A stretch of DNA of 64,000 bases, taken from SAR324 cluster bacterium (GTDB lineage: Bacteria; SAR324; XYD2-FULL-50-16). The position numbers were made by a program, and so were the translations under genes. The notes beneath the pieces are model-generated. The model was not told where the DNA came from. It searched no databases and worked only from the letters and a program-made list of their open reading frames with translations. The stretch spans positions 35,586 through 99,585 of the forward strand of contig JANQGZ010000013.1 in the NCBI GenBank assembly GCA_028282825.1. Direction: 5' to 3'. Shown piece after piece: positions 28,092-32,607 of this stretch (positions are counted from its first letter, which is position 1; each line of letters begins with the position of its first letter).

Positions 28092-28911
28092 GCTTCTTAA
28101 CCAATCTATCAGCAAACAATTGTCTCTCGCACAATAAACCTATGCCCTCGAAATTGCCTGCCTTGTTTTTTAAAAATGAATTGGAACGGACTGAATTGAT
28201 CTAATAACCAACCAATAAGTGATTTACTGATTAATTGGAAGGAATAAATCTATCTGACTGTTGCATTTTGATACAATCAGCAATTGTGATGCCACAGCCA
28301 AAACTACAAAAAATTAGATCTTATTTTTCAACAAGTTAACCAAAGTTCGTTTTTTACATCATCGCATTTTTCACGAGAGTATTCTCATTATTGAGATATT
28401 TGTCAATACGCAAAACTGGGAAATATCGACTCCATTTTGTTTTGGATAGGGATTCAACACTCTGTTATTATTTGTTTTTACTCCTAATGGTCTTAGAAAA
28501 ATCAACAGGATTTCAATAATAAAAAACCAACTTCAATAAATTTTCCCTTTGATTTTAGAAAGTTACAATTTTAAGCTTACGACTCAATTCGATTTTCTTG
28601 AGATATTTATCATTCAAATCCAGTTAAATTGCTGCGGCATTATAGCTAAATAATCTTGAGATTGACAAATAGAATTTTATGTCAGCTTGAGGTATTCAAT
28701 TTCAATGTTGATCTTGCCAGAGCATTTGGTTTCAAAAATGTGCCATTAGAGTTGCTATTTTGTTAGAGTTGGTAGCTGTTTTATTGAACAAAACCTAAAA
28801 GTTAATATTCAATAGCCAGGGATTTGAAATCCTTTTAATATAAAACGGGTTATTGTTATGTCCAAATTGAGTGGTTACAACTAGAGAATAAAAATTCAAA
28901 TTAGATCGCAA

Positions 28912-29601
28912 ATGGAAGAATTGAAAGAAAAGTCCGATTATGTATCGTTCATTAAATCAGCCCAGAATAAATCGGATCAGACCGAATGCAAGCGTTGCTG
29001 TACATGTTGCGCAAAAGGAGGCCCTGCCCTGCATAAAGAAGATTTGGATTTGATTCAATCAGGTAAATTACATGGCAGGTTTTTGTTTACCATCCGTGAG
29101 GGGGAACCAGCCAAAGACAATGTCAAAGGAGGTTTGGTTCAAGCCGATACCGACATTATTAAGATCAAGTCAAAAGATGGAACAGATGCTTGTTTGTACG
29201 CAAATTTTACAAACAATCAATGTAGTATATATGAGGACAGACCCATTGAATGCAAGACATTAAAATGCTGGGACACGGCTAAGATTGAAGCATTGTATAA
29301 TAAAAACAGGTTAACAAGAAAAGATATCATTGGAGGAATCCAAGGATTATGGGAACTGGTTGAAGAACATCAGCAAAAATGCTCGTTTTCCAAAGTGAAA
29401 CAGATTATTGAGGAAGCCAAGGGAAAGATTGAGGGGCAAGCTTTGAAGCAACTACTGGAGATAGTGCAATACGACATTTCTATTCGAACCTTGGTGTTAG
29501 AAAAAACAGATACGGATCCAAATCTGATTCCCTTTCTCTTTGGAACCCCTATGCAGTCCATATTGAGGAAGTTGGGAATTGAATTCAAACAGCGTTCTTA
29601 A
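28912..29601 (+). CDS. YkgJ family (CxxCxxCC) cysteine-cluster protein
   Basis: CKRCCTCC...C...CSIYEDRPIEC. Confidence 0.85.
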   Translation: MEELKEKSDYVSFIKSAQNKSDQTECKRCCTCCAKGGPALHKEDLDLIQSGKLHGRFLFTIREGEPAKDNVKGGLVQADTDIIKIKSKDGTDACLYANFTNNQCSIYEDRPIECKTLKCWDTAKIEALYNKNRLTRKDIIGGIQGLWELVEEHQQKCSFSKVKQIIEEAKGKIEGQALKQLLEIVQYDISIRTLVLEKTDTDPNLIPFLFGTPMQSILRKLGIEFKQRS

Positions 29602-29629
29602 CGTAAATAATACATGTTTATATTAATTG

Positions 29630-30745
29630 ATTAACCAACTTTCCGGGTTTTTAAGATATTTATTAATTAGGTTGGTACTACTTTTGTATTTCCCGCTCAG
29701 TCTATAGTCTTCCTGACAGATGAAACAATTCACAACGAATTTACAGTGCCCCCATAAATCCAGCTTTGATACTGGTTCAATGCACTACTCGTTGGTTGAA
29801 ACTTGCATTAGTGATTTATAAAGACTATAAAATGCATACCAACGCGCATGTTAAGGTGATCGATCAATTTGGCAATTTGTTTGTATCGTGGATTCATTGA
29901 TTGCAACCAAAGTGCAAAAAGAGTCTGATCGTCATAAATAATAGATAGTTATTTGACAAATTAATATCAAATAAAGGGTTGATTTTCGAATAATGGTCTG
30001 ATAAACCTCTTTGTCAAAGGAGGTTAAAAAGGGGAAAGCCTTTAAAAACAGCCTTTTTCATGGTTGTTCCAGATCAATTTTTTAATCTCTTTAAGGTTTA
30101 TCAAAACAAAAAGGCCCAATAGTCTACTAGGCATACTAGGTGATTGACCTTGGAAAGGGTATTTAATGGTAATTAAGTTAAATCAGTCACTTGACCAGAG
30201 TTTCCTATTTGTAGATTTAAAAAACGATGCATTAGAGTTGATATTTCTAATTAAATAACATAGCATCGCCTTTTATTTGGGTTAATGAAGAGAACAACAG
30301 ATTGTGGGAGTTTAACCAGCGGTCTTTCTTTCGTCGTTAGTTTTTAACAATCCAATTTGTTTAGGTTCTTAGGCACTACCTGATCAGTCAGTTTGACTTT
30401 TTCGTTGAAGTTATAGGATTGAGTTTGGTAGGCTGCTGAATACAACAGCGATTGAAGCATAATTTGCTGTTACACGATTCACCGACATCCCGTTGAACTT
30501 CCAACGTGAAGGCCGGGAAAGAGTGAAACTGGCAGGCTAACTGGAGACGATATTTTCAAATAAGTTTATTACTCTCCTTTCTTTTTGGTACATATCACCG
30601 GTAAGTCTGTTGGTAAAAATGAAACGCTTTGCCAGCGTATTCAATTATCGCTTGGAACAAGAAAGCTTGTTCCGGGGGATTTTTCAAAAATGTCTCTTTG
30701 GTCATGCTTAGAGGCAAGGTTAGTTTTTATAAAAACTAAACATAA
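29630..30745 (+). ncRNA. Candidate large structured RNA or very long structured 5' leader (not assignable to a known family)
   Basis: No ORF of 60 aa or more across 1.16 kb. Many nested helices, several with G-U pairs in the + orientation (see findings). Confidence 0.5.
30720..30739. promoter_or_regulatory. Perfect 20-bp palindrome just upstream of the porin RBS
   Basis: TTAGTTTTTATAAAAACTAA is its own reverse complement; AAGGAG RBS follows. Confidence 0.6.
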
Positions 30746-30765
30746 TTTCTTTAAAAGGAGTTAAA

Positions 30766-31842
30766 ATGCTTAAGAAATTATTGACAGGTTGTCTGACAAT
30801 CGCAATGATCGGCGCGTTTTCAGCCAGTGCTTCTGCTGAAGCCGAATTTAAATGGACTGGTGACGTGACCGGTAGTTTAATTCAAACTTCTACAAAAGCT
30901 GAAACCACAGGTGATTCTGAAACTCTCACCTACATGGATATGGTAGCTTCTGCTGACTTGGAATTAAGTGTCAAGGTTCCAGGTGATGTATGGACCGGTG
31001 AAGCTAAGTTCGAGTTGGATTTGACAGCTGGTAACACAGAAGATGATGACAAAGAGATCTTAACTTCAGCAGTTAATGTTGATGACCTTTATGTAGTGGC
31101 TTCCAAAGAAGGTTTAGCAATCACTTTTGGTGAATTCGATCCCTTTGGAATTGGTAAAGGTGGTGAATACCTGGGTGAAATCGATGACACTGAACAAGCT
31201 GGTGGATTCGGTGCTTTTAGTGAAAAAGGCCTGGCTATGGTTGGTTTGACTGACGTCGGACTGAATCTGATTTTGGGTATGAACAAGGTTGGTGATGCTG
31301 ATGATAAGGAAGTAGCTTCAGAAACTGTTTTTGGTGCTAACTTTGATAAAGCGTTTGGTGATCTCGCTTTTGCTGTCTCATACTATTCAGCTTCCCGATC
31401 CATCAATGAAGATGATGGTGATGCTACCAAGGATAGTGATAATGATGGTTACAGCGCTTCAGAAATTTCACTGGCTGTTCAATACACATTGGGTCAAATG
31501 GCATTCGCTTTGAATTATACCCAGTATAACGATAAGGATGGTGGTCCGGAAGAGAATGAAAACAAAGACACCTACATGGGACTCATGTTTGATATGGGAC
31601 TCGATGATGGTATGGGTCTGTCAGTTGCATACGAAACCGTAAAGGCAACTAACAACACTGGTGCTACCGGTGCGAAAGACATTGATACTGACAAGACACT
31701 CTTGAACGTTACCTTCCAGTTTATGTTAGGCCCTGTAACAAACTATGTTGCTTACCAAGCCACAACTTCGAAGAAAGACATAGATGATAATGAGGCTGGT
31801 ACAGAAGCTCAGCTTGGTTATTCAATGAGAGTTGCGTTCTAA
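30766..31842 (+). CDS. Outer-membrane beta-barrel, porin-like
   Basis: Signal peptide (ASA|EAE), alternating beta-strand pattern, C-terminal Phe (YSMRVAF), strong AAGGAG RBS and very acidic loops. Confidence 0.8.
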   Translation: MLKKLLTGCLTIAMIGAFSASASAEAEFKWTGDVTGSLIQTSTKAETTGDSETLTYMDMVASADLELSVKVPGDVWTGEAKFELDLTAGNTEDDDKEILTSAVNVDDLYVVASKEGLAITFGEFDPFGIGKGGEYLGEIDDTEQAGGFGAFSEKGLAMVGLTDVGLNLILGMNKVGDADDKEVASETVFGANFDKAFGDLAFAVSYYSASRSINEDDGDATKDSDNDGYSASEISLAVQYTLGQMAFALNYTQYNDKDGGPEENENKDTYMGLMFDMGLDDGMGLSVAYETVKATNNTGATGAKDIDTDKTLLNVTFQFMLGPVTNYVAYQATTSKKDIDDNEAGTEAQLGYSMRVAF

Positions 31843-31873
31843 TAACATCCGTTTTTAGGACACTGTGTTTTTT

Positions 31874-31911
31874 AAGCCACTGCAGGATTACTCCTGCAGT
31901 GGCTTTTTTTT
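31874..31911 (+). terminator. Rho-independent terminator after the porin gene
   Basis: AAGCCACTGCAGGA-TTAC-TCCTGCAGTGGCTT followed by a T-run. Confidence 0.9.
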
Positions 31912-31920
31912 GCAAAAAAA

Positions 31921-32607
31921 CTAACTCAAATCTATGTTTTGCAACTGCTCATAAATGGTTTTAATCTTTTCCTGATGCTCAGGCGGGACAGTTAAAATTT
32001 TTGCCGGATGATTATTGATCAGCCTGGGGTGAATTGTCTCCTCGCTTCCTCTTAATATTTCCTTATTTTCGTTTTCTTCCAGATAGACAATCAAATCTGT
32101 TAAATTTCCTGAGACGCCGAAGGTGTCGATGTGTTCGATGTATTGTTTGAAGAGGTTGTTGACGGATAATACAAAGGGATCCATGTCGGCGAAACCGTCT
32201 TCTTCACAGTATTCTTTGGAGCACATGCTTCTACATTCAAAGGGTCTCACTTCGTAAATCGGACAGGCATCGTCTTCCAGAATCGGACAACTTCCCCAGA
32301 AGGGGTCTGAATCTCCCTCCACAGGTACCGGTTCATCATTTGCGTAAATTTCCGCCAGTCTGTTAATGGTCACTTTCGGTTGAAATCGTTTCTTGCCTTT
32401 TTCGAGCTTCAGTCTGTCAATTAAATCCAACCTGTTGTTTTCCTTTAAATAGTTCATGATTTCATAGGCTTCCAGGCTAGTCATGGTTACATTTCTTGTG
32501 CAGCACCCTGAGCAGCTTTTTTTGCAGGCCAGTTCATAATCTTTAATAAAATCATCATAGATTTGATAGATTTTCTTTAAAATTTCCTTACGTCGTTCTA
32601 AATTCAC
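31921..32607 (-). CDS. YkgJ family cysteine-cluster protein
   Basis: CKKSCSGCC...CPIL..CPIYEVRPFECR. Confidence 0.85.
   Translation of the reverse strand: MNLERRKEILKKIYQIYDDFIKDYELACKKSCSGCCTRNVTMTSLEAYEIMNYLKENNRLDLIDRLKLEKGKKRFQPKVTINRLAEIYANDEPVPVEGDSDPFWGSCPILEDDACPIYEVRPFECRSMCSKEYCEEDGFADMDPFVLSVNNLFKQYIEHIDTFGVSGNLTDLIVYLEENENKEILRGSEETIHPRLINNHPAKILTVPPEHQEKIKTIYEQLQNIDLS

Follow-up and report, generated by a model that had tools for sequence, protein, structure and literature searches.

Why is the only Porin_4 gene of an 8.0-Mb bacterial genome preceded by more than a kilobase of DNA with no sizeable open reading frame (ORF), and how much of that DNA acts as RNA? The question arises in a 64,000-nt stretch of a SAR324 cluster bacterium (the window, positions 35586-99585 of contig C20 in the source genome G000, an assembly of 132 contigs with 42% G+C), where a gap of 1164 nt at 29602-30765 lies between a gene for a CxxCxxCC-domain protein and a porin gene. 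A preliminary description, made from the letters of the DNA, had pictured ~1.1 kb of this gap (29630-30745) as an ORF-free series of nested multi-helix domains, either an undescribed large noncoding RNA or a giant porin leader. The observation is partly confirmed and its interpretation partly supported. The gap is indeed ORF-free, as no ORF in it exceeds 59 aa, and no 1.1-kb RNA of consecutive nested domains emerges, because the region divides into ~0.5 kb of leader, ~0.3 kb of control DNA, and ~0.37 kb of spacer.

The best reading is that the 3' part of the locus is a genus-specific, undescribed, cis-regulatory leader. We think it probable that positions ~30273-30798 form a cis-acting structured 5' leader (~490 nt plus 11 codons) of the mRNA for the only Porin_4 porin. 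The idea of a giant porin leader survives for that 3' part (~45% of the region originally drawn, with the first 33 nt of the gene added), fails for 29630-29975, and fits 29994-30237 poorly.

Covarying structure upstream of the porin start codon

All five genomes of the genus (G000 to G004, G004 being the nearest species) keep the gene order, with 1.06 to 1.55 kb between the CxxCxxCC gene and the porin. The core of the leader (30478-30686, 209 nt) was aligned in eight sequences, the five genomes plus three metagenome contigs, and the segment upstream of it (30267-30483) in the five genomes only. Of the cells of 61 core pairs, 96.8% are standard pairs, and 11 pairs have changed on both sides, compared with 4.4 ± 1.5 in 500 shuffles (none of which reached that count) and 2 to 4 in six slid controls. 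The upstream segment forms three hairpins with 48 consensus pairs, 84% of whose cells are paired; here 19 pairs carry double changes, whereas the shuffles gave 11.3 ± 2.3 (none of the 500 reached 19) and the slid controls 2 to 11. Covariation among the upstream regions of relatives had been proposed as a check in the preliminary description, and compensatory changes above the level of shuffles are what we found in 30267-30686. Core pairs hold in 456 of 471 cells on the + strand, where 46 cells are G-U, and in 412 of 471 if taken on the - strand, a comparison that is biased because the structure was predicted on +. No open frame or leader peptide is kept in the leader, in any frame, and the longest ORF of the gap (59 aa) is not preserved among the relatives.

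A covariance model of the core found one match per genome in all five genus genomes (E 6.5e-37 to 3.5e-53), each in the same direction as the porin. The model had no match outside the genus among 19 genomes of the family, and the 5 of 88 genomes of the class that do match belong to this one genus; with blastn over 60 relatives, the motif was likewise not found outside it. When metagenomes were scanned with the best-conserved 22-mer, five stretches came back, namely three new variants (L014-L016), one G001 copy, and one chance match (L013), which lies inside a coding region and was dropped. Among the other stretches, L017 and L018 are G001 and L019 is G003, and a genome scan with the promoter-like block C returned only G001 and G003. 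The whole window had no match in Rfam 15 at gathering score, in agreement with the preliminary description, which could match the region to no riboswitch, intron, tmRNA, RNase P, or 6S RNA. A permissive search of 29400-30900 (E up to 10) gave five sub-threshold hits at chance level, with 14 to 22 bits against gathering scores of 40 to 60 and a best hit of 22.3 against 50.

The two best-supported elements are the 15-pair helix of the core and the terminator-like hairpin H4 (Table 1). The 15-pair helix closes a 38-nt loop (30554-30591) containing the pyrimidine-rich AAGUUUAUUACUCUCCUUUCUUUU, whose 24 nt are the same in all eight sequences and occur once in the genome. Covarying stems around an invariant loop give the core an aptamer-like look, seen in only eight related sequences. 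H4 has double changes in 5 of 10 consensus pairs and, in all eight sequences, keeps its U tract and folds at -10 to -19 kcal/mol; it shows the sequence features of an intrinsic (Rho-independent) terminator. The preliminary description had drawn this helix as GGAACAAG/CTTGTTCC and had seen no U-tailed terminator before the ribosome-binding site (RBS), a statement contradicted by the 11-pair stem and the GGATTTTT that follows it. Two further readings of the invariant loop were rejected on inspection of the alignment: a pseudoknot with GGGAAAGAG, in which the changes in G001 and G003 are uncompensated, and an RBS-like site on the - strand, which has no conserved start codon after it.

Hairpins a, b, and H0, upstream of the core, vary in sequence while keeping their pairing. 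Double changes affect three of the six pairs in the inner helix of hairpin a, and U5 comes after H0 in two sequences, G003 and one metagenome contig. Hairpin b had been foreseen as CTACC/GGTAG; the hairpin covaries, but the conserved register differs from the one drawn. Within the core, the helix TTCAC/GTGAA is conserved just as it was drawn, without covariation because it is nearly invariant, and the hairpin ACGCU/AGCGU is also conserved but invariant. Beyond H4, hairpin H5 has a folding energy of -8.7 to -17.3 kcal/mol in all eight sequences, and an invariant helix encloses the Shine-Dalgarno (SD) sequence AAGGAG (30755-60) and the AUG (30766). The first 11 porin codons share this constraint: among the eight sequences only 3 of 33 nt vary, synonymous sites included, and divergence sets in abruptly from codon 12-13. 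Because H5, the palindrome, and the start-site helix are conserved, H5 with pair exchanges, they appear to be transcribed from upstream.

The helices of the preliminary description are real as pairings: a script recovered nine of the nine checked, five fully Watson-Crick and four with one G-U each, together with the smaller inner motifs. Conservation separates them. Those from 30296 on are conserved with compensatory changes. The domain at 29703-29829 has no counterpart in the nearest species, where its 5' arm is deleted, and has a folding z score near 0. The domain at 29994-30197 decays with distance, TGATAAACCT/AGGTTTATCA forming 10, 8, 5, 5, and 1 of 10 pairs in the five genomes and the consensus holding 8 pairs only.

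Table 1. Coordinates of features in the gap and of the porin gene (window positions; percentages are paired cells of the alignment)
Feature	Position	Strand	Sequence and conservation
Unconserved spacer after the CxxCxxCC gene	29602-29975		G000/G004 identity 15-66%, large deletions; z -0.7 to +0.6
Block A	29979-30007	+	TTGATT-N17-TAAACC, invariant GGTCTG; conserved in 5/5 genus genomes
Block B	30033-30077	+	Small hairpin GGAAAGCC/GGTTGTTCC overlapping TTGTT-N4-ATCAA (30064-30077); only consensus helix of the P1-P2 segment
Promoter-like P2 (block C)	30219-30266	+	A-tract, -35 TTGATA 30238-43, 17-nt spacer, -10 TAGCAT 30261-66; both hexamers invariant in 5/5
Leader hairpin a	30296-30361	+	AACAGATTG/CAATTTGTT plus inner helix 30315-20/30336-41; outer helix kept in G004 and G002 with G-U/G-C exchanges
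Leader hairpin b	30378-30433	+	Outer helix ~30378-85/30426-33, inner TCAGT/ATTGA; 12 pairs, 6 double changes, 88-89%
Hairpin H0	30446-30469	+	Sequence different in each species; 8 pairs, 5 double changes
Core helix 1	30478-30527	+	TTCAC/GTGAA around TCCCG/CGGGA and CTTC/GAAG; 97-100%, nearly invariant
Core 15-pair helix	30528-30614	+	30528-44/30598-614 plus GATAT/ATATC; 5 double changes, 4 one-sided compatible, 98.3%
Core hairpin	30620-30643	+	UGAAACGCU/AGCGUAUUCA; 9 pairs, 98.6%, nearly invariant
H4, terminator-like hairpin + U5, putative attenuator	30647-30684	+	11 pairs at 30651-30676, 5 G-C, loop 4, tail GGATTTTTCA (consensus scan)
H5 hairpin	30691-30716	+	UGUCUCU/AGAGGCA, U-G/C-G and U-A/C-G exchanges; inserted inner hairpins in G002 and G001
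Perfect 20-nt palindrome, RNA hairpin or DNA operator	30720-30739	+	TTAGTTTTTATAAAAACTAA; invariant in 7/8, U-A to U-G in G003; single-copy in the genome
Start-site module	30742-30798	+	AUAAUUUCUU (30742-51) pairs with codons 3-6, AAGAAAUUAU (30772-81); predicted fold
Porin gene (Porin_4) served by the leader	30766-31842	+	Pfam PF13609, E = 1e-15

Strong folding is likewise confined to part of the gap. The gap as a whole gave z = -5.2 on the + strand and -3.3 on the - strand (30 dinucleotide shuffles). When it was cut into 200-nt segments, + strand values ran from -0.7 to +0.6 over 29600-29999 and from -2.1 to -4.5 in 8 of 10 segments over 29900-30899 (the other two gave -1.0 and -0.1), with the - strand mostly weaker, and the core reached -3.4 to -6.7 on + in all five genomes. 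A folding comparison on both strands had been suggested at the outset; on + it shows folding beyond that of the shuffles mostly from 29900 on, with z near 0 over 29600-29999.

RNA libraries place the leader next to the porin start. Eight metatranscriptome runs share few words with the window, and the contigs of four of them (X1, X2, X3, and X7, from four studies) were aligned. In each of them, contigs of close relatives map to the leader, at 30038-30290 (depth 4.4) and 30288-31187 (depth 24.2) in X1, at 30334-30705 and from 30719 into the coding sequence in X2, at 30492-30650 and 30617-30824 in X3, and from 30492 into the coding sequence in X7. Leader and porin start are joined on one contig, across H4, in three of the four runs (X1, X3, and X7). 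These contigs are support rather than proof. No contig lay on 29000-30037 in the four runs, which does not amount to silence because relatives diverge there. The contig starts at 30288 (X1) and 30492 (X3 and X7) were considered as 5' ends and rejected, since DNA contigs break nearby.

Proposed control by the leader and its alternatives

The data show conservation, strand, covarying structure, lack of coding capacity, and contiguity with the porin start in RNA libraries; the start site, termination at H4, a trans factor, and the direction of control are what we infer from this arrangement. Transcription would begin mainly at P2, a sigma70-type promoter with an upstream A-tract, and perhaps more weakly also at block A, ~260 nt further up. 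The RNA would fold into three hairpins of variable sequence (30296-30469), followed by the core (30478-30643), whose 15-pair helix would display the invariant loop, and then by H4 with its U5 tract, H5, the palindromic hairpin, and the helix enclosing SD and AUG. Porin output would be set after initiation, by premature termination at H4 (attenuation) of part of the transcripts, with occlusion of the start site by the invariant helix as a second level. The invariant loop could be the docking site for a trans factor, either a protein or a small RNA (sRNA), that shifts the balance, and the many hairpins may also stabilize a very abundant mRNA.

Several points count against a regulatory leader of this kind. 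The aligned sequences are only eight and are related, the structure under test was derived from those same alignments, and what the shuffle control yields cannot be read as a probability. A number of the best-conserved helices never vary and so give no evidence from covariation, and the core is ~100% identical between G000 and G004, which may be due to a recent recombination event and not to selection. Within the class, the motif occurs in a single genus. Strong folding is also not rare in this genome: among 23 randomly chosen ORF-free gaps of at least 600 nt, 3 had z <= -5 and 5 had z <= -3, and because the gap is not exceptional among long gaps of the same genome, thermodynamics alone does not decide. 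The contigs from RNA libraries show neither starts, ends, nor strand, and such libraries can hold DNA; the starts near 30492 in two RNA studies are probably strain variation, because DNA metagenome contigs also break near 30478-30511. With regard to attenuation, the U tract of H4 is short (5 U), and no conserved antiterminator was found for it, the best partner of its 5' arm lying in differing alignment columns from one sequence to the next. Pairing between the invariant loop and the SD of the porin itself was considered and rejected: at -13.3 kcal/mol it is matched by 6.5% of 1,000 shuffled loops, and this SD is not the loop's best target in cis.

One alternative is that the element is a separate or dual-function sRNA of ~410 nt, running from P2 to H4 and acting in trans through its invariant loop, with the porin made by read-through or from its own promoter. 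Promoter-like and terminator-like sites do bracket 30273-30684, and bacterial sRNAs usually have a hairpin with a U tail as their 3' module. The 24-nt loop, held out by a covarying helix, is complementary to the strong RBS typical of this genome. Where its 12-nt core recurs in the genome, it is mostly as the reverse complement of an RBS region, so that the loop could pair with the SD of many genes. An attenuator-derived sRNA that acts in trans has a precedent in rnTrpL (PMC6614838). We nevertheless regard an sRNA as rather unlikely here. Contigs run through H4 into the porin coding sequence in three of the four runs, the elements beyond H4 (H5, palindrome, and start-site helix) are conserved too, and a scan found no promoter-like site on the + strand between 30685 and 30765. 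A more ambitious proposal joins the two ideas in a new class of large riboregulator, whose core would sense a signal (protein, small RNA, or metabolite) through the 38-nt loop and choose between termination and read-through at H4, while the ~410-nt RNA, with its perfect anti-RBS, would act in trans and the stretch would also serve as 5' anchor for swaps of porin alleles. We hold this combination to be unlikely.

A possible exchange of porin alleles bears on how the conservation is read. G000 and G004 are 71-83% identical in the upstream coding gene, 95-100% over 30472-30831, and 45-70% in the porin body (44-45% at the amino acid level), returning to 85-95% over 31972-32211 beyond the porin (91, 85, 86, and 95% in successive 60-nt intervals). 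M014 and M016 have leader cores that are 97% identical and porins that are 53% identical, and porin amino acid identity is 27-53% across all sequences and 28-53% where the leader cores agree at 64-100%. The porin body (30832-31971) is thus hypervariable and set between a 95-100% identical 5' stretch and an 85-95% identical 3' stretch, a pattern that suggests diversifying selection or allele exchange by recombination. The near-identity of the leader means that selection on the RNA is very strong, that the leader has recently served as the 5' anchor for porin exchange by recombination, or both.

One could then suppose that the stretch works mainly as DNA, a set of promoters and operators whose near-identity marks a recombination anchor and whose hairpins are incidental. 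Blocks A, B, and C do resemble protein sites, blocks A and C are held at a fixed spacing, the 20-nt palindrome and a large part of the core show no variation, and the identity profiles of G000/G004 and of M014/M016 fit an anchor well. Recombination accounts for the identity of two species; it cannot explain pairing that is conserved among the more distant ones. Compensatory and G-U-compatible changes are concentrated in the stems that vary between species (the 15-pair helix, H4, H0, and hairpins a and b), pairing is strand-asymmetric, and the core folds strongly on + in every genus genome, so that an explanation at the level of DNA seems quite improbable to us. Chance pairing in AT-rich DNA, with nothing functional behind it, does describe 29602-29975, where z is near 0 and nothing is conserved, and describes the helices at 29994-30197 to a large extent; the strong z scores of three of 23 other long gaps would also agree with it. 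For the 3' part it is refuted and, for the locus as a whole, hardly credible: 30273-30798 is conserved above the neighboring genes, it covaries, and the covariance model finds it once in each genus genome.

Resemblance to known leaders

The 5' untranslated region (UTR) of Escherichia coli ompA, ~133 nt with two stem-loops, is a stabilizing leader of a major outer-membrane protein. The porin leader is like it in being non-coding, bearing hairpins, and preceding the gene for an abundant outer-membrane protein, and the ompA leader acts after initiation and has single-stranded segments for trans factors. The differences are in scale and content: the porin leader is ~490 nt long, has at least nine helices, a terminator-like hairpin, and a start site predicted to be occluded, and shares no sequence or Rfam similarity with ompA. 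Riboswitch and attenuator leaders offer another likeness, as here too an invariant loop on covarying stems is followed, before the SD, by a hairpin and U tract that vary in sequence and are conserved in structure. Riboswitch classes usually serve several genes and taxa. The porin leader serves one gene in one genus, with one copy per genome, no mutually exclusive antiterminator was found, and its gene context suggests no ligand; neither a conserved alternative pairing nor recurrence before related genes in several taxa, the marks of a riboswitch, was found.

Length and architecture find another parallel in the rne 5' UTR of proteobacteria, a long multi-hairpin autoregulatory leader (Rfam rne5; PMC13692253). 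Both are leaders of several hundred nucleotides built of successive hairpins, and in rne a protein reportedly reads one stem-loop. The porin leader has no match to that Rfam family and belongs to a different class of gene. Control of porins at the RNA level also has precedents. In Shewanella oneidensis, Omp35 is under post-transcriptional control with a predicted 5' UTR element, and enterobacterial porins are controlled by sRNAs of the MicF/MicA/RybB type, both as given in PMC2659441. The proposal of a cis element in the 5' UTR of a porin gene is therefore not new. The leader described here comes from another lineage, is unrelated in sequence, and carries covariation support. In the literature searched, supplementary material being outside the search, no porin leader of comparable kind is described.

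Porins determine what passes into a Gram-negative cell, and they are prime targets of phages and predators. In this uncultured marine lineage, whose genome measures 8 Mb, the only general porin is evolving, or being exchanged, very rapidly. Because the leader RNA is better conserved than the neighboring genes, it points to an undescribed post-transcriptional layer over envelope permeability, and it adds a candidate with covariation support to the small set of bacterial leaders several hundred nucleotides long. What limits the reach of the finding is that the element occurs in a single genus, known solely through metagenome assemblies, and that the mechanism is one we infer.

Upstream control DNA and the surroundings of the porin gene

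The first ~0.37 kb of the gap (29602-29975) is plain spacer, unalignable beyond the nearest species. The next ~0.3 kb (29979-30270) we read, from its conserved promoter-like and operator-like blocks, as upstream control DNA; no conserved reading frame was found in 29960-30300. P2 has the sequence hallmarks of a sigma70-type promoter, with a 9/12 consensus match in a scan of the + strand and a hexamer spacing within 16-18, and its region is 96% identical between G000 and G004. The predicted start lies near 30273, ~490 nt upstream of the ATG. As a consensus match alone P2 is weak, because the scan returned 7 such sites against 4.0 ± 2.2 expected. Block A may be a weak upstream promoter (P1) or a protein site. 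In each of the five genomes blocks A and C are separated by 258-259 nt, even though the intervening sequence is divergent and has no consensus structure apart from the small hairpin of block B (8 pairs, 3 with double changes, -3.8 kcal/mol by RNAalifold); fold z scores of this P1-P2 segment are inconsistent over the genomes, from +0.7 to -3.8.

The FNR/CRP-family consensus is a TTGAT-N4-ATCAA-like inverted repeat. In block B, TTGTT-CCAG-ATCAA keeps its half-sites invariant in the five genomes while the 4-nt center varies, so that it looks like a box of this family; such a box would suggest that the porin is under oxygen- or cAMP-type control. The CGATGC/GCATCG hairpin with CCUUUUAUUU was considered as terminator of an upstream RNA and rejected; it forms 6, 6, 6, 1, and 3 of 6 pairs in the five genomes around a 32-nt loop, and the promoter reading fits better. 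Two minor features lie in the same segment. A 20-aa ORF at 30060-30122 (MVVPDQFF...) has equal length and ending in G000, G004, and G002 and has disappeared from G001 and G003. The - strand carries a terminator-like hairpin plus T-run (30114-30132) that is kept in G004 and, judged by eye, is not recognizable in the other three genomes.

The gap at 29602-30765 is among the 22 longest of 4688 ORF-free gaps in the G000 genome, and the porin is the genome's only PF13609 match. The unit of leader and porin is flanked by two paralogous CxxCxxCC-domain (PF03692) genes, the upstream neighbor at 28912-29601 on the + strand and a second at 31921-32607 on the - strand. In a sister genus, orthologues of the first of these have no porin or long gap behind them, which makes the porin with its leader look like a genus-specific insertion. 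A repeat or mobile element was ruled out, since every conserved block is single-copy in the G000 genome. The 16S rRNA gene is absent from the assemblies of all five genus genomes (88-93% complete), and G000 contains no rRNA genes.

Other long gaps of the genome show a range of folding. A further ORF-free gap just upstream, at 28116-28911 (796 nt), has z from -1.2 to +1.5 on the + strand, with values down to -2.0 on the - strand at its 5' edge (28100-28299). Three of the 23 sampled gaps, C60:58354-59009, C81:240833-241524, and C98:70223-70851, have z of -5 to -7.7 and may hold other structured RNAs.

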